Shown here: positions 1 through 10,078 of the stretch, piece after piece | Layout of the letters: the number at the start of each line of letters is the position of its first letter | Numbering within the stretch: position 1 is the stretch's first letter | Assembly: GCA_050734425.1 (NCBI GenBank) | Contig: JBOHUL010000064.1 | Coordinates: 16,683 to 80,682, forward strand | DNA: 64,000 nucleotides | Direction of reading: 5' to 3' | From: Candidatus Dormibacteria bacterium | Lineage (GTDB): Bacteria; Chloroflexota; Dormibacteria; Aeolococcales; Bog-877 | Translations under genes and position numbers: made by a program | The notes under the pieces: model-generated | The model's input: the letters and a program-made list of their open reading frames with translations, nothing else | Databases searched by the model: none | Told to the model about the DNA's origin: nothing

Positions 1-44
1 GAGCTACCTGGCCGGAGCCTGAGTCGGCTCGCAGGCGCGACCCC

Positions 45-326
45 TCAGTGCCCTGAGGGGTGGTAGCTCCTCCGGTTCTGGCTCATGTTGGTGGCCAGGA
101 CCGCCAGGCCGCCCAGCAGAATCGCGACCACGATCGCGATCACGATCGAGCCGTACTTGCCGCCGGAGGTCTTGCTGCCGATCTCCGCGAGCGAGATGAA
201 GCCTCCCAGGAGAGACCCCACCAGCCCGCCCACGACCCTGATCAGGGCGGCGAGACCTCGGCTCTTGCGCACCCAGAATGCGCCGACCACCAGCCCGATC
301 ACGATGAATGCGACTAGATGAAGCAC
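45..326 (-). CDS. GlsB/YeaQ/YmgE-family small membrane protein (transglycosylase-associated, general stress)
   Basis: 93-aa ORF with two glycine-rich hydrophobic helices (GLVVGAFW..., GGLVGSLLGGFI...), typical of the YeaQ/YmgE family; sits next to the pspA cluster. Confidence 0.5.
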   Translation of the reverse strand: MLHLVAFIVIGLVVGAFWVRKSRGLAALIRVVGGLVGSLLGGFISLAEIGSKTSGGKYGSIVIAIVVAILLGGLAVLATNMSQNRRSYHPSGH

Positions 327-328
327 GA

Positions 329-1114
329 CTAACCTCCTGTGCGCTGGCGATCCGGTGGCGGTTCCGAGGCGGCTGGTTCCGGGCCGACCGATGAGGAGTG
401 CCGGTCGTGGCGGAGCTGGGCCAGCTTAGTCTCCACATTGGTGCCGGCGCTGCCCGGGCGGAGCTGGGCGTCGATATCGTCGCCCTCCGAACCCAGGCTG
501 GACCCGATCCCGGAGGCGACCAGCTGCTGGATGGCCTCGGCTCGGGCCTGGAGCTGACGCACGTTGTCCTCGCCCCGTTCCAGCATGAGACGGGTGTCGC
601 CCGAACCCTGGGCCAGCCCGGTCAGGACCTCGCCGGCCTGAACGCTGGCCTGGGCGGCCGCGTACTGGGCCTTGAGGCTGTCGCGCTGGGTGCGGAACGA
701 GTCGACCCGGCCGCTCAGCCGTTGGACAGTCATCGCCAGCTTCTGCTCCTGGCTGCTCAGTGCCTCGATGTGGTGCTCGAGGGCGCGCATTTGGTTCTCC
801 GTCTCGAGGGCCCGAGCCAGCGCCAGCCGGGCCATGTCGTCCCGGCCGCGGATGACCTCCGCCCGGGCCTCCTCCCGGAGGCGCTCCTGGCGCTGGCGCA
901 GCTCACCCGCCTGGAGCTGCAACCTCCGCTCCGAGGTGACCACCTCCGCGACCCCCCTGCGGACTTGGCGGAGCGCCTCCAGCTGCCGGCGATAGGAGAG
1001 GTCGAGCGCGTCGGCGGGATTCTCGGCCTGGTCGAACAGCCGGTCGAGTCGGCGTTGGACCCTTGTGAGCAGGCGCCGCCCCAGAAGCGTGCGCGATGCG
1101 ATCGCGAGCGCCAC
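329..1114 (-). CDS. pspA: PspA/IM30 (phage shock protein A) family protein, paralog 1
   Basis: Coiled-coil protein, LDRLFDQAENPADALDLSYRRQLEALRQVRRGVAEVVTSERRLQ..., colinear with the second PspA paralog in this window. The tool ORF runs to 1366, but the homologous N-terminus begins near an in-frame GTG (1114) or TTG (1144); no ATG is present. Upstream sequence is antisense to an ABC-ATPase remnant. Confidence 0.75.
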   Translation of the reverse strand: MALAIASRTLLGRRLLTRVQRRLDRLFDQAENPADALDLSYRRQLEALRQVRRGVAEVVTSERRLQLQAGELRQRQERLREEARAEVIRGRDDMARLALARALETENQMRALEHHIEALSSQEQKLAMTVQRLSGRVDSFRTQRDSLKAQYAAAQASVQAGEVLTGLAQGSGDTRLMLERGEDNVRQLQARAEAIQQLVASGIGSSLGSEGDDIDAQLRPGSAGTNVETKLAQLRHDRHSSSVGPEPAASEPPPDRQRTGG

Positions 1115-1319
1115 TGCGGCTGCGAGTATCTCCAGACCGAACAAGCCCGCGGGCCTCCAAACCCTTGCACCGAAGCGACCGCCCTGTGGCCGCCATGTTA
1201 ACGTCGCGCTGAGATCGCCGATCCCACGCTCTGACTCGCCGCCATTCCCAGGGGGCGCGACACTCCGGTCGGCTCCAGGGGGAGGCCTTGGCCCCCGCCG
1301 GGGCCAGCGGGTGGCAGGC

Positions 1320-1616
1320 ACGGCTGCTTTTGGCGGCCCCCACACCCTGGTGCTGGACGAAGCCACCTCGATCCTCGACCCTCGCTCCGCCCGGGCACCA
1401 GGAGCGCTTGCCGGGCAAGGCGCTGGAGGGCAGGACGGTGATCAGCGTCTCCCATCGCCGGGGCAGACTGCAGCCGCCGACCTGGTCGTGATGCTCAACG
1501 GGGAGCGGGTGGGTTCGCACCACCAGCTACTGGGGGAAGGCGGCCGCTACGCCGATCTCTGGCGCGCCGACGGAGGGGAGATGGACGACACTTCGGCAGG
1601 GGGAGGCCAACCCTAG
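1320..1616 (+). pseudogene. Remnant of ABC transporter ATP-binding domain C-terminus (Walker B and H-loop), frameshifted
   Basis: One frame reads ...HTLVLDEATSILD... (Walker B) and ...LNGERVGSHHQLLGEGGRYADLW (typical ABC exporter C-terminus). A second frame (1288..1491) carries GRTVISVSHRRG (H-loop). No N-terminal half is present. Confidence 0.4.
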
Positions 1617-1666
1617 CCGTGCCTCTGCCGCGCGTGGGCAGGACCCAAACGGGTATATAGGGGCGT

Positions 1667-2590
1667 ATGCATCGCAAGCTGGGCGCCGACATCGGGCTCA
1701 CCGCCCGAATGTTCTTGGCCCTGTTCCTCCTGGGGGTTCTCTATCTCGCCTTCATAGGGGTGCTCTTGCTCCTCCGGGTGGACATCGCCGTGATCGTCGT
1801 GGTGGTCGCGGTGCTGCTGGTGGCCCAGTACTTCTACTCCGACAAGCTGGTCTTGAACAGCCTCCACGCCCACCTGGTGACGGCCTCGCAGCAGCCACAG
1901 CTGTTCGACATTGTCGGCCGCCTCTGCCAGATCACCGGGATGCCGATGCCCCAGATCGCGGTCATCCCCTCGCCGGTGCCCAACGCGCTGGCAACTGGGC
2001 GCAATCCCAAGCACTCGGTGGTGGCGGTCACGACCGGCATCCTCAACCAGCTGGAGCCCCAAGAGCTGGAGGCGGTGATCGCGCACGAGCTGAGTCACGT
2101 GATCCACAAAGACGTGAAGGTCATGGCCATGGCCAGCTTCTTCGCGACGGTCGCCTCGCTCCTGGTGCAGTCCGGGCTTTGGTTCGGCATGTTCGGCGGA
2201 TTCGGAGGGATGGGCGGTTATGGTCGCGGCCGTTCCAGCGACGAAGGCGAGGGCATGATCCTCGTGATCTTGGCGGCGGCCGTGGTCTGGGCGGTGAGCT
2301 TCGTTCTGATCCGGGCCCTCTCGCGCTACCGGGAGTACGCGGCTGACCGGGGCTCGGCCATCATCACCCGCGACCCGAGCCAGCTGGCCTCGGCGCTGCA
2401 GAAGATCAGCGGGACCATGACCCGCATCCCGAGCCGCGACCTACGCCAGGTGCAGTCGGCTAACGCCTTGATGATCTTCCCGGCGGTCCACATGGGCAAG
2501 GGCAGCCTGGCGGAGATCTTCTCCACCCACCCCTCCCTGGAGCACCGGCTGCGCCGCCTCAGCCAGCTGGAGCGGGAGATGCTGGGCTAG
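1667..2590 (+). CDS. htpX: Zn-dependent M48 protease HtpX
   Basis: N-terminal TM helices, HELSHV (HEXXH) motif, GRNPKHSVVAVTTGIL, C-terminal ...FSTHPSLEHRL typical of HtpX. Confidence 0.85.
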   Translation: MHRKLGADIGLTARMFLALFLLGVLYLAFIGVLLLLRVDIAVIVVVVAVLLVAQYFYSDKLVLNSLHAHLVTASQQPQLFDIVGRLCQITGMPMPQIAVIPSPVPNALATGRNPKHSVVAVTTGILNQLEPQELEAVIAHELSHVIHKDVKVMAMASFFATVASLLVQSGLWFGMFGGFGGMGGYGRGRSSDEGEGMILVILAAAVVWAVSFVLIRALSRYREYAADRGSAIITRDPSQLASALQKISGTMTRIPSRDLRQVQSANALMIFPAVHMGKGSLAEIFSTHPSLEHRLRRLSQLEREMLG

Positions 2591-2601
2591 GCGGTCCCGC
2601 C

Positions 2602-3177
2602 TTGGGATTCCTCGATTCCCTGATCGGGCGCACCAAACTTCCCAAGTCCAACGAGGACAAGATCTTCGCCATCGGCACGGCCGCGGTCGGCCTGGAGGCG
2701 TCCGCTTCCCTGAGCCCCGCCGGTCGGGTGGGGGTGGTGTTCAAGTCACTGCCCCCGGGCCGCTTCGACCAGCTGATCCAGGACACGGTGCAGATGCTCC
2801 AGATCAAGGACAGCACCAGTCCCGATGACCCCCTCAAGGTCAAGGACGTCAGGGACGAGCTGGGCTACGAGTGGCTGATTGTCGACGGAGACGACTTCGA
2901 CGGCCTGGTCGCCGCGCTCCACGGGGTGGCGCTGGGCTTGGAGGAGGAGGGGCTGGGCGGCTGTCTCTTGGCGGCGGTCTTCCCCTTTCTCCAGCGGGAC
3001 CGGCGGGTCTACTTCATCTACGGCTACAAGCAGGGCACCTTCTACCCCTTCGTCCCCAGCGGCGACCGCCAGCGCGACAACGCCGCCGAACTCGACCTGG
3101 CCACCAGGGCCAAGGAGGACCTGCCCATCGAGCCCAATCTCAGTTCCTGGTTCCCGCTCTGGGGGGTGCCGGTCTAG
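2602..3177 (+). CDS. Hypothetical cytoplasmic protein, possibly PspA-associated, immediately after htpX and convergent with pspA paralog 2
   Basis: 191-aa ORF, 12 bp after htpX; I recognise no domain. Its location between htpX and the second pspA suggests co-function (inference). Confidence 0.45.
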   Translation: MGFLDSLIGRTKLPKSNEDKIFAIGTAAVGLEASASLSPAGRVGVVFKSLPPGRFDQLIQDTVQMLQIKDSTSPDDPLKVKDVRDELGYEWLIVDGDDFDGLVAALHGVALGLEEEGLGGCLLAAVFPFLQRDRRVYFIYGYKQGTFYPFVPSGDRQRDNAAELDLATRAKEDLPIEPNLSSWFPLWGVPV

Positions 3178-3188
3178 ATGGACCGGGG

Positions 3189-4289
3189 TCAGGAGGCCTG
3201 GGCGCTGGCCTCCACGACTGTGCCGCCATCGGACATGAGCTTGGTCGCCTCCTCCAGGGTCATGTCCTCTGAGGGCAGGACCACGTCGGAGGGCAGCAGC
3301 GAATCGTTGGGCAGCTTGCTGCCGTGGGCGCGGACGAAGTTGAGCATGGCGCCGAGGGCGCCGGTGTAGGCACCCTGGTCCTGGGAGTCGATCGCCTTGC
3401 CCAGGGCGTTGTCCAAGGGCTCCAACTGGGGGCGCTCCGCGATGCTGAGCCGGTATTGGTCCTCGCCTGAGATCCGAACCACCACGCTCGGGGCGCCGCC
3501 GTTGCCGGCTGGGGCCTGGGGGCTGGCCGCCTGGCTCTCTTCGGCGGCCGATTGGTTGGAGGAGGCGATCCGAGGTGCCGACTCGGGCGCTCCCAGCACC
3601 TCCTGCTTCAGCGCCGCCAGCTGGGCGTCGACCTGGGAGTCGGTGAGGTGCCCCTGCAGCTGGCGGTCGATGTCGTCGCCGGAGTTCAGCCCGATGGTGT
3701 CCAGGGTGCCGCTGTCCATCAGGGAGTCGATCGCCTGGGAGCGTGCCTGCATCTGCTGGGTCTTGTCCTGGGCCCGCTCGACCATGAGGTTGACGTCGGT
3801 CATCTGCTCCGAGAGGCCGGTCACGGCCTCTCCGATCTGGGTCGAGGCCTTGGCTGCCGAGTACTGGGCCTTGAGGGTCTCGCGCTGGGTCTTGAATGAA
3901 GCGACCTTGGCGGTCAGCTTCTGGGCGGTGACCTCCAGCTTCTGCTCTTGGTCTTTGAGCTGCTGGATCTGAGCCGTCATCGCGTCAGCCTGGGCCTTGG
4001 CATCCTGGGCCCGGGTCAAGGCCAGTCGCGCCAGGTCCTCACGGCCCTGCTGCAGCGCCAGCTTGGCCTGGGTCTGGCACTTGTCCTGCGTCTGCTGCAG
4101 CTGGGCCTGCTGCATCTCAAGGCGCTTCTCCGAAGTCAAAACCGTGGCCACGCTGGCCTTGACCTTGGAGAGAGCCTCCATCTGCTTCTGGTAGGAGAGG
4201 TCCAAGGCATCCATCGGGTTCTCGGCCCGGTCCATGACCTTGTTGGCCTTCTGCTGGAACAGGTCGGACATCCGGCGCATGATGCTCAT
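3189..4289 (-). CDS. pspA: PspA/IM30 family protein, paralog 2, with ~130-aa C-terminal extension
   Basis: MSIMRRMSDLFQQKANKVMDRAENPMDALDLSYQKQMEAL... is a classic PspA N-terminus and coiled coil. AAGGAG RBS lies upstream of the ATG. The C-terminal ~130 aa are non-coiled and of unknown fold. Confidence 0.8.
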   Translation of the reverse strand: MSIMRRMSDLFQQKANKVMDRAENPMDALDLSYQKQMEALSKVKASVATVLTSEKRLEMQQAQLQQTQDKCQTQAKLALQQGREDLARLALTRAQDAKAQADAMTAQIQQLKDQEQKLEVTAQKLTAKVASFKTQRETLKAQYSAAKASTQIGEAVTGLSEQMTDVNLMVERAQDKTQQMQARSQAIDSLMDSGTLDTIGLNSGDDIDRQLQGHLTDSQVDAQLAALKQEVLGAPESAPRIASSNQSAAEESQAASPQAPAGNGGAPSVVVRISGEDQYRLSIAERPQLEPLDNALGKAIDSQDQGAYTGALGAMLNFVRAHGSKLPNDSLLPSDVVLPSEDMTLEEATKLMSDGGTVVEASAQAS

Positions 4290-4404
4290 CTCGGTCTCCT
4301 TGCTCGGCGGTGGCGGCCCCGCGCCCCCAGCGGCCCAGCCCCGATCTTAGCGGCTGATCGAGCTCAACTCTGCCACATTAGTTGATGTCCTGCGAGGGCG
4401 TCGG

Positions 4405-4779
4405 TCACGCGAGACGGCGTCCTTTCATGCCCGGTCGATCCGGCCCTATCAGGACCACATCGGCGGGGTCATCCTCGGAGACAAGCCCTAGCACCAGGAC
4501 GTCGCTGCGATAACCGGCGATCCGGCGTGGCCCGAGGTTGACCGCCGCCAGCACCTCGCGCCCCTCCAGCTCCTCGGGTCGGTAGCGACGGGTCAGCTGG
4601 GCGCTGGACTGCAGCCGCCCGAGCCCCGGGCCGAAGTCGATCTCGAGCTTAATCGCCGGCCGCCGAGCTTCGGGGAAGTGCCGGGCTCGGACCACTACCC
4701 CGCAGCGGATGTCAATTCGTTCCCAGGCCCCGGCGGCGTCGGTCCCTACTGGCTCGTCCGGTCTGTTCATGGGGGCCAC
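4405..4779 (-). CDS. tRNA-binding (EMAP/CsaA-like) domain protein
   Basis: KLEIDFGPGLGRLQSSAQLT...EELEGREVLAAVNLGPRRIAGYRSDVLVLG resembles the CsaA/Trbp111 OB-fold tRNA-binding domain. Confidence 0.5.
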   Translation of the reverse strand: MAPMNRPDEPVGTDAAGAWERIDIRCGVVVRARHFPEARRPAIKLEIDFGPGLGRLQSSAQLTRRYRPEELEGREVLAAVNLGPRRIAGYRSDVLVLGLVSEDDPADVVLIGPDRPGMKGRRLA

Positions 4780-4843
4780 CCCCTCCTGGGTCGTGCTTTG
4801 CAGGGGCCCGGATGTCGATCGGGCCCTCGGTATACTCCGGCGC

Positions 4844-4926
4844 GGGCGGGTACCGAAGTGGTTAAACGGGGCTGACTGTAGATCAGCTGGCTCATGCCTA
4901 CGGGGGTTCGAATCCCTCCCCGCCCA
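4844..4926 (+). tRNA. tRNA-Tyr (anticodon GUA), type II with long variable arm; CCA not encoded
   Basis: Folded by hand: acceptor GGGCGGG/CCCGCCC, D arm, anticodon stem GCUGA/UCAGC with loop CUGUAGA, long variable hairpin GGC-ucau-GCC, T arm GGGGG-UUCGAAU-CCCUC. Coordinates +/-2. Confidence 0.8.
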
Positions 4927-4960
4927 GTGACTGGCGGCCCTACGCGCCTCGGCGCGGAGG

Positions 4961-5080
4961 ATGAGCGTCTACCTCGCCTCGGAGGAGACCGCCCACCTCG
5001 CCGCGATTGCCGAGCGCGAGCGGACGTCCCAGCCAGAGGTCAGTCACCGTGAGGTCCGGCTCCACGACCCGAACACAAGG
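4961..5080 (+). pseudogene. Possible ribbon-helix-helix (CopG/ParD-like) antitoxin-type gene fragment
   Basis: GGAGG RBS 4 nt before the ATG. The N-terminus MSVYLASEETAHLAAIAERERTSQPEVSHREVR fits the RHH pattern (beta strand, then helix A, then G/S turn, then helix B). The ORF then degenerates into low complexity and runs through tRNA-Thr, so it cannot be intact. No toxin partner was found. Confidence 0.25.
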
Positions 5081-5278
5081 GCAACCGCAGCGTCGCGCCC
5101 ATCGACATCGCCGAAGCTCGCGGCGCGTCGATCGCCGGCCTCCGCGACGACGCCTTGCTCGTGGGCCCTGCGGCTGCCACACTGCGGCGCAGCCGGGCCC
5201 CGTCGGATCTCAGTCCAGGGGAGCTGGCGCTCGGCCCCGCCCCGGGCTGGAGGGCGTCTCCATAATGACGCTCGGCAC

Positions 5279-5350
5279 GCCCAGGTAGCTCAGTGGCAGA
5301 GCGCTTCCTTGGTAAGGAAGAGGTCGCGGGTTCAATCCCCGCCCTGGGCT
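5279..5350 (+). tRNA. tRNA-Thr (anticodon GGU); CCA not encoded
   Basis: Hand fold: acceptor GCCCAGG/CCUGGGC, D arm GCUC-AGUGGCA-GAGC, anticodon stem CUUCC/GGAAG with loop UUGGUAA, T arm GCGGG-UUCAAUC-CCCGC. Confidence 0.8.
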
Positions 5351-5465
5351 CTTCTGATCTCAAGGCCACCACTTAGCTGGTAATGATGCACACCGCGACG
5401 TTGTCGGACCCGACCTCGCCGTCATTCGCCAAGAGCGCAGAGTCAGCTGGCGCGGAAACCCGCGC

Positions 5466-5911
5466 CTAGCTGTACCTCCCACGTAGGTTGTTGCCACGAG
5501 TCACTGGAGGGAGCCTGCCAACCGCGGTGTGGGCGCGGTGATAGTTGTAGCGGTGCACCCAGGCGGGGAGCACGCGGGTCCGGCTGCTGTTGCTGATGTA
5601 GGGGCGGAAGTAAGCCCACTCCTCGAGCAGGGGGCGGTTGAAGCGCTCCACGTTGCCGTTCAACTGGGGGTGGTAGCGGGGGGTGAGCAGCTGGCGGATC
5701 CGGAGCTCGGACAGTGCGTGCCGGAAGTCGTTGGAGATCCGGTAGGCCTTGGCGTTGTCGGACATCACCGCCCCCACCTGGATCCCCAGCCCCTGGTAGA
5801 ACTGCTACGCCCGGCGCAGGCAAGCCGCGCACGGGGTTGCTCGCGGTGCGCCTCCACGTAGGCCAGCTGGCGGTGGTCGTCCACGGCGCAGTGCAGGTAG
5901 TCGTAGCCCTG
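5466..5911 (-). mobile_element. IS481-family (rve/DDE) transposase, C-terminal half only, frameshifted; decayed IS
   Basis: Two minus-strand frames: ...GYDYLHCAVDDHRQLAYVEAH... and ...AKAYRISNDF...YHPQLNGNVERFNRPLLEEWAYFRPYISNSSRTRVLPAWVHRYNYHRAHTAVGRLPPVTRGNNLRGRYS match the integrase-core C-terminus of IS481 transposases. N-terminal HTH and the first part of the core are absent. Confidence 0.6.
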
Positions 5912-5977
5912 CCCCGTCGCGTGCGGTACCTGCCCTCGCCCCCGGACCGGACCCGGCCCCACTCCGGGCGCGGCCGA

Positions 5978-6376
5978 GTGGCAAGAACCGGAGCCCTGCT
6001 GCGCCCACTCATCGGGGAGGCGGCCTTCCGGGCCTGCGTCCGCACCCACTGGCTGCTGATCGCCCTGGCCGTGGCGGTGCCTCTGGGCCTGGCGGCGGCG
6101 TTTGCTGCCGCCCTCAGCTCCGGTGCTCTCCGGAGCGTGCTGGCGCTGGTCTGGCTGCTCTGCGCCCTCGCCTGTGTCATCGCCGCCTTCCTAGGTCTCA
6201 TCTGGAGCCGGCGGGCCAACGCCCTCACCAGCGACCGGCTCACCTCGCAGCTGGATACCCGCTTCGGATTCGGGGCGGGGGCGCGAGGCTCGATGTGGCG
6301 TCGTGGAAGCGCCAGATCGATCGGGCGCTGCGCCGCTATCGCCAGACCAACCGTCGCAGATGGCCTCACCAGGTAA
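5978..6376 (+). pseudogene. Small 2-TM membrane protein gene (paralog A), frameshifted; paralogous to 12246..12626
   Basis: GTG-initiated frame reads ...LLRPLIGEAAFRACVRTHW plus two hydrophobic helices. The C-terminal homology (RLDVASWKRQIDRALRRYRQTNRRRW) continues in a different frame (6295..), indicating a frameshift near 6290. The protein-level match to the intact minus-strand paralog is clear. Confidence 0.4.
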
Positions 6377-6529: not shown

Positions 6530-9500
6530 TTGATTTGTAGCAATTGTCAGGCGGAGACGACTCCTGGGCGGCGGTTCTGCGGGCAGTGCGGAGCGCCCCT
6601 GGCTCATGCTTGTGCCGCCTGCGGGGCGGCCAACCCGCCGGGGGCGAGGTTCTGCGAAGAGTGCGGCACGTCGCTCCAGCCGGTCCCGGCGGCGACTCCC
6701 GCGCCCGCTGCGGCAGCACCGCCACCGGCGCCTGGCAGCGAGACCATCGAGCTCAGATTCGTCTCGGTCGCGTTCGCCGACCTGGTCGGGTTCACCACCC
6801 TCGCCGAGGGTCGGGACCCGGAGGAGGTCCGCGAGCTCCTGACACGCTATTTTGAAGTCGCCAGGGAGCTGGTCAGCCGTTACGGGGGGACGGTGGAGAA
6901 GTTCATCGGGGACGCGGTCATGGCGGTCTGGGGAACCCCCACCGCCCAGGAGGACGATGCCGAGCGCGCGGTCCGCGCCTCCCTGGACCTGGTCGAGGCG
7001 GTCGGCCAGCTGGGGCTGCAGATGGGCTTGCCCGGGCTCTCGGCCCGAGCGGGGGTGCTCAGCGGCACGGCTGCCGTGACCGTCGGGGCCAGGGGCCAGG
7101 GGATGGTAGCCGGGGACCTGGTCAACACCGCCTCGCGGATCCAGGGCCAGGGTGCACCGGGACAGGTCCTGGTCGGGGAGACCACCAAGCGGGCTACCGA
7201 GGCGGCGATCGCCTACCAGGAGCTGGGGACGAAGAGCCTCAAGGGCAAGGGCGAGCCGACCGCGCTCTTCCAGGCGCTGCGGGTGGTGGCGGGGCTCGGA
7301 GGGATGCTCAAGTCGCAGCGCCTGGAAGCCCCTTTCGTGGGCCGTGAACGAGAGCTCCGCCTGGTCAAGGAGGTCTTCCACACCTCGACCGAGGAGCGCC
7401 GCGCCCACCTGGTGCAGGTGACTGGGGTGGCCGGGATCGGCAAGTCCCGGCTCGGTTGGGAGTTCTTCAAGTACATCGACGGGCTCCAGTCCGGCTACCT
7501 GTGGCATCGGGGCCGCTGCCTGGCCTACGGCCAGGGCATCACCTACTTCGCGCTCGCCGAGATGGTGCGCGGGCGGCTCGGGATCGTGGAGCAGGACCCG
7601 CCCGAGGTCGAGCAGGCCAAGCTCACCGCGACCCTGGAGCAGTACCTCCACGACGCCGACGACCGCGCCTTCGTCGCTCCCCGCTTGGCCCACTTGATCG
7701 GGTTGGCGGAGCGAACCGCCCCCGACCAGCAGGATCTCTTCGCCGCCTGGCGGCTCTTCTTCGAACGCATGGCCGAGGACAGCCCGGTGGTTCTGGTCTT
7801 CGAGGACATGCAGTGGGCGGACTCGGCCCTGCTGGAGTTCATCACCTACCTGATGGAGTGGTCCCGGAACTTCCCCCTGTTCGTCATGAGCCTGGTCCGC
7901 CCTGAGACGGCTCAGGCGGGCCTCGGGGCAAGCACTCGAAACGCCACCCTGATCCACCTGGAGCCGCTGTCCCCCGGGGCGATGGAGCAACTGCTCACGG
8001 GACTGGTCCCGGGCATCCCCCGCCTTCTGGCGGAGCGGATCCAGCAGCGGGCCCAGGGCGTGCCCCTCTATGCGGTGGAGACGGTGCGGATGCTCCTCGA
8101 CCGGGGCTTGCTGGTCGAAGACGGAGCCGCCTACCGGCCGACGGCCGAAATCGAGACGCTGGAGGTCCCGGACACTCTCCAGGCGCTGATCCTGGCCCGG
8201 CTCGACGGGATGGAGCCCGCGGAGAGACAACTGGTCCAGGAGGCTTCCGTGCTGGGTAAAACCTTCACCCTCGAGACCCTGGCCCGACTCTCGGGCGACA
8301 CCCACCAGGTAGTTGGGGCGGTGCTGCATGCGCTGGTGGCCAAGGAGGTCCTGGCGATCCAGAGCGATCCCCGCTCTCCCGAGCGGGGCCGCTACGGCTT
8401 TCTCCAGGACCTGGTGCGGACGGTCGCCTACGAGACACTCTCCAAGCGGGATCGGCGGTCCAAGCACCTGGCGGTGGCGACCGTCCTGGAGGCTGCCGCC
8501 GGCGACTCCGAGGATCTGGTCGAGGAGCTGGCCTCGCACTATCTGCAGGCCTGGCGCCTGGACCCGGACTCTGACGACGGCGGCGAGATCCGAAGGAAGG
8601 CCCGACGGCTTCTGGTCCGAACCGCCGAGCGGGCCGCCCAGCGGGCGGCGGTCGATGAGGCCCACGCCGCCTTCCAACGGGCCTCAGAACTGAGCGAGTC
8701 GCCGCTGGAGCGCGGTGCCCTGACTGAGCGGGCGGGGCAGATGGCGGAGCAGAGCGGCCAGCTGGACGAGGCGGACCAGCTCTACGAGGAGGCGACGCGG
8801 CTGCTCAAGGAGGGAGGCGACCACCGCGGGGCCGCCAGAGCCCAGGCGCGGCTGGCGGGGTCGGAGTACCAGCGGCTGCAGGTGGAGCAGGCGACCAAGC
8901 GAATGCAGCATGCGTACGCGGAGATGGCGACAGACGATCCCGACCCCGACGTCGCCGTGGTCACGGCCCAGCTCGGTCGCTTCCTGGCGCTTCAGGGCGA
9001 TGCCGAAAAGGCAGCACCGCTGCTGGAGCGAGCCCTGCACCTGGCGGAGCTGCTGGAGCTGCCTGACGTCTACTCTCAGGCCTTGAGCAGCAAGGCGGTC
9101 GTTCTCATGGGCCAAGACCGGATGGACGAGGCAGTGGTGCTCCTGCGGCGGGCCCTAGAGGTGGCCCTGGAGCACAGCCTCACCTTGGCCGCCAACCGCG
9201 CCTACAACAACCTGGGAACGGTGCTGGAGGCCCAGGAGCGCTACTCGGAGTTGGTCACCATGCTCACCCAGCAACTTGAGTTCGCCCGTAGGGTCGGCGA
9301 CCGCCCCTGGGAGCTCAGCACCCTGCTGGCCCATGTGACACCGTTGATGGGGCTCGGGCAATGGGACGAGGCCGTGGCCATGGTCGCGGAGGCCCGGGCG
9401 ACCGAACTGCCCTTGGTGGCATTCGCATGGAGCCAACTGGTGAGCCTGGTTAGCCTCCACTGCCACAGGGGCGAACTGGACGAGGCCGAGAGGGTTTTGG

Positions 9501-10078
9501 AGGCGACGCGATCTGCCGCGGAGGCCGACGAGTGGCAGTCCCGCCTGGCCTATTCCGCGGAGAGGGGTGTCGCCCTGCGCGCCCACGGTCGGATCGAGGA
9601 GGCGCTGATGGCGGCGGAAGGGGTCCTGGCGAGCAAGAGCAAAGTGGGCATGGGGATTACCAATCCGATCTTGAAAAGGGCGCTGGTGCTGGCCGGCGAC
9701 TGTGCCATCGACCTTGCAGACCCCGACCGCGCATCAAGGATCCTGGCAACCGCCCGCGACGCCCTGCCAGGCCAGGTCACCCCTTGGCTGAGGGGTCATC
9801 TGGCCAGGCTCTCGGCCAGGGAGTGCGCCCTGCATGGCGACACCCAGCAGGTGGAGCCGCTGTTCACAGCGGCGGAAGCCGGGTTCGGGGCCATCGACGA
9901 CCCCTTCGACCTGGCGGCTACCCGGGTCGAGCATGCCGAGTGGTTGGTCGAGCAGGCAAGGTCAGACGAGGCCCTCCAGCTCCTCGCCGAAGCACGCACG
10001 ACCCTGGAGCGTCTGGGCGCCCAGCCGTGGCTGGAAAGAGTCAGGCAGATCAGGATCGAAGAACGCCTACCCGCGTGA
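6530..10078 (+). CDS. Multidomain signalling protein: N-terminal double zinc ribbon, class III adenylate/guanylate cyclase catalytic domain, STAND/AAA NTPase (P-loop GVAGIGKS), C-terminal TPR-like helical repeats; no HTH
   Basis: CSNCQ...CGQCG...CAACG...CEECG (four CxxC). Cyclase motifs FADLVGFT, FIGDAVMAVWG, GDLVNTASRIQ (metal Asp pair plus Asn/Arg transition-state residues). Walker A VTGVAGIGKSRL, Walker B-like VLVFEDMQWAD. About 600 aa of alpha-helical repeats. TTG start in a locally AT-rich patch. Confidence 0.8.
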   Translation: MICSNCQAETTPGRRFCGQCGAPLAHACAACGAANPPGARFCEECGTSLQPVPAATPAPAAAAPPPAPGSETIELRFVSVAFADLVGFTTLAEGRDPEEVRELLTRYFEVARELVSRYGGTVEKFIGDAVMAVWGTPTAQEDDAERAVRASLDLVEAVGQLGLQMGLPGLSARAGVLSGTAAVTVGARGQGMVAGDLVNTASRIQGQGAPGQVLVGETTKRATEAAIAYQELGTKSLKGKGEPTALFQALRVVAGLGGMLKSQRLEAPFVGRERELRLVKEVFHTSTEERRAHLVQVTGVAGIGKSRLGWEFFKYIDGLQSGYLWHRGRCLAYGQGITYFALAEMVRGRLGIVEQDPPEVEQAKLTATLEQYLHDADDRAFVAPRLAHLIGLAERTAPDQQDLFAAWRLFFERMAEDSPVVLVFEDMQWADSALLEFITYLMEWSRNFPLFVMSLVRPETAQAGLGASTRNATLIHLEPLSPGAMEQLLTGLVPGIPRLLAERIQQRAQGVPLYAVETVRMLLDRGLLVEDGAAYRPTAEIETLEVPDTLQALILARLDGMEPAERQLVQEASVLGKTFTLETLARLSGDTHQVVGAVLHALVAKEVLAIQSDPRSPERGRYGFLQDLVRTVAYETLSKRDRRSKHLAVATVLEAAAGDSEDLVEELASHYLQAWRLDPDSDDGGEIRRKARRLLVRTAERAAQRAAVDEAHAAFQRASELSESPLERGALTERAGQMAEQSGQLDEADQLYEEATRLLKEGGDHRGAARAQARLAGSEYQRLQVEQATKRMQHAYAEMATDDPDPDVAVVTAQLGRFLALQGDAEKAAPLLERALHLAELLELPDVYSQALSSKAVVLMGQDRMDEAVVLLRRALEVALEHSLTLAANRAYNNLGTVLEAQERYSELVTMLTQQLEFARRVGDRPWELSTLLAHVTPLMGLGQWDEAVAMVAEARATELPLVAFAWSQLVSLVSLHCHRGELDEAERVLEATRSAAEADEWQSRLAYSAERGVALRAHGRIEEALMAAEGVLASKSKVGMGITNPILKRALVLAGDCAIDLADPDRASRILATARDALPGQVTPWLRGHLARLSARECALHGDTQQVEPLFTAAEAGFGAIDDPFDLAATRVEHAEWLVEQARSDEALQLLAEARTTLERLGAQPWLERVRQIRIEERLPA

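Follow-up and report, generated by a model that had tools for sequence, protein, structure and literature searches.

A PspA–PspAA and HtpX–PspAB locus in Candidatus Dormibacteria with a second, putatively membrane-anchored PspA paralog

The stretch of DNA analyzed here, 64,000 nucleotides (nt) from a Candidatus Dormibacteria bacterium (assembly GCA_050734425.1, contig JBOHUL010000064.1, positions 16,683 to 80,682 of the forward strand; hereafter the window), carries between positions 45 and 4289 a compact cluster of five genes, in which the genes for a GlsB-like small membrane protein and for the PspA/IM30 paralog PspA-1 lie on the minus strand, followed by htpX and pspAB on the plus strand and by the gene for a second paralog, pspA-2, on the minus strand. 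A sequence-only reading of the window had given the same order, strands and coordinates, all of which agree with the open reading frame (ORF) listing, and had recognized a PspA-centered envelope-stress cluster in which PspA is paired with an M48 membrane protease, as the family profiles bear out. It had supposed the host to be a member of the Actinomycetota, an assignment that is displaced by the NCBI entries of the cluster proteins (the PspA-1 and PspA-2 entries are PspA/IM30 family proteins from the same taxon as the PspAB entry) and by a matching locus in two assemblies, all of which place the DNA in Candidatus Dormibacteria. Based on matches above the curated cut-offs of five profiles (PF22742, PF22743, PF04012, PF01435 and NF002669), the names of the proteins at NCBI and the published description of the system (Ravi, Popp et al., mSystems 2024, PMC11237479), the locus can be assigned with high confidence to the known envelope-stress module that combines PspA and its associated domain PspAA with a membrane metallopeptidase and its associated protein PspAB.

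The protease component passes the NCBIfam model NF002669 (411.3 bits, E 2e-123; cut-off 341) and matches PF01435 (E 9.1e-33), with the HEXXH zinc site present as HELSH at residue 140 and with hydrophobic segments at residues 6–63 (two transmembrane (TM) helices), 149–168 and 193–220 that fit a protein with four TM helices. The start of pspAB lies 11 nt after the htpX stop codon and, as in pspA-1, is a TTG codon (2602–2604 in pspAB, 1142–1144 in pspA-1), while pspAB and pspA-2 are convergent with 11 nt between their stop codons. The 191-amino acid (aa) product of pspAB had been proposed as a new PspA partner of unknown fold. It is instead a member of a published family, matching PF22742 (“PspA associated protein B”; 194.8 bits, E 1.7e-57; cut-off 27) over residues 1–191 and profile positions 1–189 of 189, and an identical protein at NCBI is named “PspA-associated protein PspAB”. 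An exhaustive HMMER search of the family returned 1242 representatives at 50% identity, nearly all of ~190 aa and always with PspAB as a stand-alone protein, the longer relatives consisting of PspAB with unassigned sequence or of read-through of an M48 fragment.

PspAB is a soluble, stand-alone alpha/beta protein, without a hydrophobic or TM segment in its hydropathy profile and with an AlphaFold2 (AF2) model, calculated from a 20-sequence alignment, that forms a two-layer alpha/beta sandwich (predicted local distance difference test score (pLDDT) 78, predicted template modeling score (pTM) 0.76). Residues 1–11 are disordered in the model, yet carry the invariant D5, L7 and G9 as part of an N-terminal motif conserved in the alignment (MGFLDxLxGR). 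A C-terminal block (YKxGTFYPFVP...RDN...E...W...W) is likewise conserved, and the most conserved residues of the protein are Y140, K143, Y148-P149-F150, P152, R158-D159-N160, E163, E177, W183 and W187. No relationship between PspAB and PspA-2 or PspAA was detectable with hhalign. The sole match in a search of PDB sequences with the PspAB profile was a designed TIM barrel (E 0.0036), considered spurious, and because this search gave no informative structural match, the mechanism put forward for PspAB below is an inferred one. The possibility that the N-terminus (MGFLDSLIGR) mimics helix alpha0 of PspA/Vipp1 was considered and is kept as speculation, as the N-termini of the PspA proteins in the same genome differ (MSIMRRMSDLF...), the motif is short, and its hydrophobic moment is modest.

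PspA-2 matches PF04012 over residues 3–228 (80.3 bits, E 2e-22; cut-off 33.9), a region in which the AF2 model has helices alpha0 to alpha5 (residues 3–232), and it is related to structures of known ESCRT-III-like proteins both by a profile search of the PDB (hmmsearch; Vipp1 6zvr, 1.8e-21; 4whe, 3.6e-12) and by Foldseek comparison with Vipp1 and PspA (E 2.7e-7 to 8e-5). The 138 aa beyond the PspA/IM30 match had been read as a non-coiled extension without further assignment; the extension is present, but it consists of a linker and a recognizable domain. The linker (residues 234–266) is rich in Pro, Ala and Ser, is modeled with pLDDT <50, and varies in length and sequence among homologs, and residues 269–357 match PF22743, the PspAA family (83.5 bits, E 1.3e-23; cut-off 27). 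The AF2 topology of the domain is beta-beta-alpha-alpha-beta-beta-alpha over residues 268–353 (pLDDT 70–83), with strands at 268–273, 278–282, 324–326 and 336–338 and helices at 283–301, 305–322 and 345–353, and four residues (R272, D277, D293 and D304) show no variation among 23 sequences. As modeled, PspA-2 is a canonical ESCRT-III-like PspA joined by a flexible linker to a globular PspAA domain. The two paralogs thus differ in architecture, as had been noticed from the sequence, with an N-terminal hydrophobic extension in PspA-1 and a C-terminal globular extension in PspA-2.

The linkage of these genes was explored in loci located by a degenerate-pattern scan for PspAB in one genome per GTDB species, which found at least 586, of which 80 were fetched and compared with the window proteins by tblastn; 42 of the 80 had full flanks. 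By the labels of the metagenome-assembled genomes (MAGs), the loci belong to the Dormibacterota, Actinomycetota, Chloroflexota and Methanosarcinales/Methanotrichales; some labels (Micrarchaeia, Verrucomicrobiia, Acidiferrales) are probably the result of mis-binning, and the sequences concerned group with the Dormibacterota. A htpX gene is located directly upstream of pspAB, on the same strand and with a gap of <250 nt, in 76 of the 80 loci. Kept in this many genomes, the arrangement is judged to be far beyond chance, and on gene order htpX and pspAB constitute a tightly coupled two-gene operon. PspA and PspAA are encoded within 6 kb of pspAB in 55 loci (32 of the 42 with full flanks), and in 30 of these 32 they follow pspAB on the other strand, in the convergent orientation seen in the window. 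A single ORF encodes PspA and PspAA in 22 loci, all of the Dormibacterota type, and separate adjacent genes do so in 33 (32 in a different frame, one split by a stop codon), which derive from the Solirubrobacterales/Thermoleophilia, Acidimicrobiia, Chloroflexota, Methanosarcinales and Methanotrichales and from one MAG labeled Gammaproteobacteria. Both the homologs of the 191-aa ORF and its conserved linkage to htpX and pspA, on which the sequence-only reading had made its proposal depend, are therefore found across genomes. Dyads of htpX and pspAB with neither PspA nor PspAA within 6 kb occur at loci L020–L022 and L024 (Dormibacterota), L030, L033, L041–L044, L046 and L051, among others.

Table 1. 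Features of the envelope-stress locus, in window coordinates
Feature	Position	Strand	Basis
GlsB-like small membrane protein, 93 aa	45..326	-	ORF listing
pspA-1, PspA/IM30 paralog, 271 aa, TTG start	329..1144	-	PF04012, orthologs, independent gene call
GGAGG Shine-Dalgarno sequence of pspA-1, 9 nt 5' of TTG	1154..1158	-	Sequence read
ABC exporter pseudogene remnant	1318..1616	+	tblastn with L003 ABC2 protein
AAACGGGTATATAGG motif, conserved, 5' of htpX	1647..1661	+	Alignment of ~25 Dormibacterota loci
htpX, M48 zinc metalloprotease, 307 aa	1667..2590	+	NF002669, PF01435
pspAB, PspA-associated protein B, 191 aa, TTG start	2602..3177	+	PF22742, full length
pspA-2, whole gene, 366 aa	3189..4289	-	ORF listing, PF04012 and PF22743
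pspA-2, PspAA domain, residues ~267-357	3219..3491	-	PF22743, AF2
pspA-2, disordered linker, residues 234-266	3492..3590	-	AF2 pLDDT <50
pspA-2, PspA/IM30 (ESCRT-III-like) domain, residues 1-233, alpha0-alpha5	3591..4289	-	PF04012, 6zvr, Foldseek, AF2
AAGGAGA Shine-Dalgarno sequence of pspA-2, 5 nt before ATG at 4289	4295..4301	-	Sequence; kept in orthologous loci
TAAGAT, -10-like element of pspA-2, putative promoter	4344..4349	-	16 aligned upstream regions

The divergence of pspA-1 and htpX holds as far as their opposed strands are concerned, but the spacer between them (1145–1666) is more than a simple divergent promoter region and holds the frameshifted last ~95 codons, from the ATPase domain, of a second ATP-binding cassette (ABC) exporter gene, matched in two frames by residues 494–583 of the ABC2 protein of the Dormibacterota locus L003 (tblastn, E 1e-9 and 1e-4). 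Because in L003 and six other Dormibacterota loci pspA-1 and htpX are separated by two intact ABC genes, each a permease-ATPase fusion (products of 580 and 589 aa), where the window has a remnant, ~3.2 kb appears to have been deleted here, as estimated against L003. On the other side of the remnant, AAACGGGTATATAGG is near-invariant across the aligned Dormibacterota loci amid flanking sequence that varies, is positioned 7–10 nt upstream of the htpX start codon in the Dormibacterota (L001–L029), and has a GCGTGA-like element ~16 nt further upstream. The TATATA within it (1654–1659) ends 7 nt before the htpX ATG and probably serves as the -10 element from which a leaderless htpX-pspAB mRNA is transcribed.

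A different block, TAAsATC...CTGGGT, is conserved upstream of pspA-2 in relatives (4302–4349 in the window, minus strand), its TAAsATC portion being invariant in 16 aligned regions at ~55 nt upstream and reading TAACAT or TAAGAT in relatives. A sigma-70 promoter scan of positions 1–5500 returned no promoters, and a terminator scan of the same interval returned terminator-like matches inside genes only. RNAalifold gave no consensus structure for the 5' untranslated region of pspA-2, and a hand-drawn CCGCC/GGCGG hairpin before the Shine-Dalgarno sequence reaches 81% pairing, shows little covariation and is not well kept in the window. Profile searches of the ORFs of positions 1–4800 yielded no match to PspB, PspC, PspF, LiaI/LiaF/LiaRS, ClgR or PspM/PspN, in line with the earlier observation that the cluster is without PspB/PspC/PspF or a ClgR-type regulator.

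The left part of the locus is composed of pspA-1 and the GlsB-like gene. The longest ORF of pspA-1 extends over 329–1366 (minus strand), with the PspA_IM30 match beginning only at ORF residue 98, and the true start is the TTG at 1144. A non-ATG start and a short hydrophobic N-terminal extension had been suspected from the sequence and are confirmed by the GGAGG sequence upstream, by the length of the orthologs (272–275 aa) and by an independent prediction of the gene at this locus (271 aa). At the N-terminus of the orthologs, ~17 hydrophobic residues precede the sequence ASRTxVGRR, the corresponding stretch in the window aligning to the TTG, and the extension is kept in every ortholog examined; the call at NCBI (261 aa, from a GTG at 1114) clips this conserved anchor. 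Residues 2–22 form a hydrophobic, non-amphipathic N-terminal anchor (mean hydropathy 1.57 and hydrophobic moment 0.1 over residues 2–19), followed by the usual amphipathic alpha0 (residues 21–38, hydrophobic moment 1.96) and the PspA coiled-coil core, and on account of the anchor PspA-1 is presumably a permanently membrane-tethered PspA. It scores 64.0 bits against PF04012 (cut-off 33.9), has no PspAA domain, and is 46% identical to PspA-2 over 226 aa. As nearly all PspA-1-type proteins recovered came from MAGs of the Dormibacterota, and as those in other genomes are 63–67% identical to the PspA-2 core, the data fit a phylum-level duplication of PspA, in which the PspAA domain would have been lost and the anchor gained.

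The GlsB-like gene follows pspA-1 after 2 nt, a gap from which the two are taken to be co-operonic, and the pairing is conserved in Dormibacterota loci. The resemblance of its product to the YmgE/GlsB proteins, noted from the sequence, is only weak: the size and the three hydrophobic TM segments fit the GlsB/YeaQ/YmgE proteins, and four of 10 orthologs match PF04226 (Transgly_assoc; best E 4.8e-5), but the protein in the window falls below the threshold of that profile (15.3 bits, E 0.024; cut-off 25.3) and far under the cut-off of NF007771 (E 0.0037). The likeliest reading of this dyad is a membrane-anchored PspA variant with a small membrane protein as its partner. Neither a link between PspA and GlsB, nor such an anchored PspA architecture, nor a partnership of an anchored PspA with a GlsB-like protein was found in the literature searched.

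The locus is bounded on the left by housekeeping genes (infB-rbfA-nrnA-truB-ribF), after which it is also situated in the two NCBI assemblies, and on the right by csaA (4405–4779, minus strand), followed by tRNA-Tyr (4844–4926) and tRNA-Thr (5279–5351), which were the only Rfam matches in positions 1–6000. An isolated integrase-core fragment (rve_3; 103 aa, E 6.5e-14) at 5466–5777 on the minus strand adjoins tRNA-Thr and is probably the leftover of an insertion sequence (IS) element or of an integrase at the tRNA site. Further to the right, positions 6530–10078 (plus strand) encode a multidomain signaling protein of 1182 aa with a double zinc ribbon, an adenylate/guanylate cyclase, an AAA_16 (STAND-type) ATPase and TPR repeats; an antisense ORF of 722 aa that overlaps it is spurious. 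The possibility of a defense system was rejected, as PADLOC returned coiled-coil noise only.

The published account of the module (PMC11237479) defined PspAA and PspAB, with function assigned by association only, reported the PspA-PspAA fusion for the Actinobacteria and Chloroflexi, and described the dyad of a membrane metallopeptidase and PspAB, which has an occasional SHOCT-like third gene; the orders given are PspA→PspAA→TM-Metallopeptidase→PspAB in Frankia and SHOCT→Metallopeptidase→PspAB→PspA→PspAA in Moorella. The window has the same four components, with PspA and PspAA fused and the TM-metallopeptidase gene directly 5' of pspAB. It differs in its Dormibacterota host, in having no SHOCT-like third gene, in the convergent orientation of pspA-2, which is co-directional in the Frankia and Moorella examples, and in the additional dyad of an anchored PspA paralog and a GlsB-like protein. 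The Dormibacterota, GlsB-type partners and TM-anchored PspA are absent from the text of that paper. Taken as a whole, the locus is probably best explained by the known module, with a proposed mechanism for PspAB and with a lineage-specific second dyad beside the module. The suggestion in the sequence-only reading that the pairing of PspA with a membrane protease makes a combined membrane-repair and quality-control unit appears reasonable and is the same inference as that made in the literature.

In the mechanism proposed here, PspAB would be a stoichiometric cytoplasmic subunit that partners the membrane protease HtpX and would probably contact the PspAA domains exposed, by way of a flexible linker, on PspA polymers. 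PspAA would serve as the handle for mutual recognition or regulation between the polymers and the HtpX-PspAB pair, so that the sealing of lesions by PspA and the removal of damaged membrane proteins by HtpX would be co-localized or co-regulated, and thus coupled; in a variant, HtpX-PspAB would control the assembly of PspA through action on PspAA or the linker. That PspAB physically bridges HtpX and PspAA is a tentative proposal, somewhat short of an even chance, and the joint proposal, in which PspAB docks HtpX on PspAA-decorated polymers while the anchored PspA of the Dormibacterota works with the GlsB-like protein, is doubtful. Several observations weigh against the coupling: among the 1242 representatives there are no domain fusions of PspAB to HtpX, PspA or PspAA; PspA and PspAA are missing from the surrounding 6 kb at 25 of the 80 loci (10 of the 42 that are fully flanked), from which it follows that the HtpX-PspAB dyad can, at least in its local setting, do without them; pspA-2 forms a transcription unit of its own that runs convergently; no operator common to the upstream regions of htpX and pspA-2 was found, each having its own conserved motif, and the two motifs differ; and literature searches found no experimental paper on PspAB or PspAA. 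HtpX-PspAB could accordingly be an autonomous protease/modulator pair, in which PspAB acts as a regulator of HtpX activity, a substrate adaptor or a pseudo-substrate plug and has no contact with PspAA, the PspA-PspAA genes being no more than frequent stress-gene neighbors that are perhaps co-induced. The adjacency of htpX and pspAB is much tighter than the association with PspA, which where present can be 1–5 kb off, the convergent orientation and the dissimilar upstream motifs fit such independence, as do the fully flanked loci without a nearby PspA, and PspAB might dock on the protease through its N-terminal peptide, which is conserved yet disordered. Autonomy is nonetheless considered rather unlikely, given that PspA and PspAA lie within 6 kb in 76% of the fully flanked loci and in four phyla including Archaea, a figure far above the expectation for unrelated genes (an expectation that is a judgement, not a computed rate), and that the neighboring PspA is of the PspAA-bearing type, by fusion or as an adjacent gene, in 55 of 55 cases. 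It is improbable that PspAB is instead an enzyme or small-molecule sensor, which would employ its invariant polar cluster (D85, K143, Y140/Y148, R158-D159-N160, E163 and E177) to modify or sense a lipid or peptide and thereby signal the state of the membrane to HtpX. An uncharacterized actinobacterial module with the 191-aa protein as a newly recognized PspA partner of unknown fold is very improbable; its gene-neighborhood logic is sound, and no solved structure or experimental function for PspAB was found, but the family has been named and published as a PspA partner (PF22742; PMC11237479), the exact protein is PspAB at NCBI and the genome belongs to the Dormibacterota, by which this proposal is refuted on both novelty and taxon.

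The second dyad has a rival reading of its own, in which relaxed selection in this genome is turning pspA-1, and perhaps the GlsB-like gene too, into a pseudogene. PspA-1 of the window averages 49% identity to its orthologs, which share 54–73% with the set, it has become rich in Arg and poor in Lys (R 13.7%, K 1.1%), the GC content at third codon positions is 0.864 compared to 0.91–0.92 in neighboring genes, and the gene adjoins the deletion scar. It has also lost 17 of the 81 positions that are invariant in 17 orthologs, while leave-one-out controls lose 0–7. Against decay, the ORF is intact with a good Shine-Dalgarno sequence (though intactness is weak evidence in DNA of 71% GC), the protein still scores well above the PF04012 cut-off with anchor and alpha0 retained, and 46 of the 54 positions invariant across both paralog families are kept. 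A gene on its way to becoming a pseudogene is thus on balance unlikely, and the divergence of PspA-1 beside a deletion scar suggests either relaxed selection or neofunctionalization.

Membrane proteins recruit or regulate the PspA homolog in the LiaI-LiaH system of Bacillus subtilis and the PspB/PspC-PspA system of Escherichia coli. The window likewise encodes a PspA/IM30 effector beside membrane-associated partners, which by analogy would be expected to dock PspA at the stressed membrane, whereas here the membrane partner is a protease, the proposed link is a soluble protein, and the ORFs of the cluster include no homologs of LiaI/LiaF, PspB/PspC, PspF, LiaRS or ClgR. In eukaryotic and archaeal ESCRT-III, C-terminal MIM motifs bind MIT-domain partners such as Vps4. 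PspA-2 has the fold in common with these proteins and may, by analogy, carry a candidate partner module at the C-terminus on a flexible linker, the site at which ESCRT-III binds adaptors and regulators; in contrast to the short, helical MIM, PspAA is a globular alpha/beta domain of ~90 aa, and no gene for an AAA+ ATPase lies in the vicinity. HtpX of E. coli (M48B) is a Cpx-regulated quality-control protease for membrane proteins, which HtpX of the window resembles in passing the HtpX equivalog model, in the HEXXH motif and in segments fitting four TM helices. To our knowledge, htpX of E. coli lacks both linkage to pspA and an operon partner of the PspAB type, and htpX of the window further differs in a start codon that follows the conserved TATATA, suggesting a leaderless mRNA.

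The PspAB partner family, the PspA-PspAA fusion and the link to a metallopeptidase were already known from the 2024 paper, Pfam and NCBI annotation, and what is new here is the lineage-specific anchored PspA paralog with its GlsB-like partner, a small variant, together with the local history of the genome. The module, present in at least 586 GTDB species genomes and represented by 1242 clusters at 50% identity, is widespread and joins the two best-known effectors of membrane stress, an ESCRT-III-like polymer and a quality-control protease, and showing how PspAB and PspAA couple the two would be of interest to the PspA/ESCRT-III field. If PspAB does form the bridge, a single prokaryotic assembly would both close a lesion in the membrane and break down the damaged proteins behind it.

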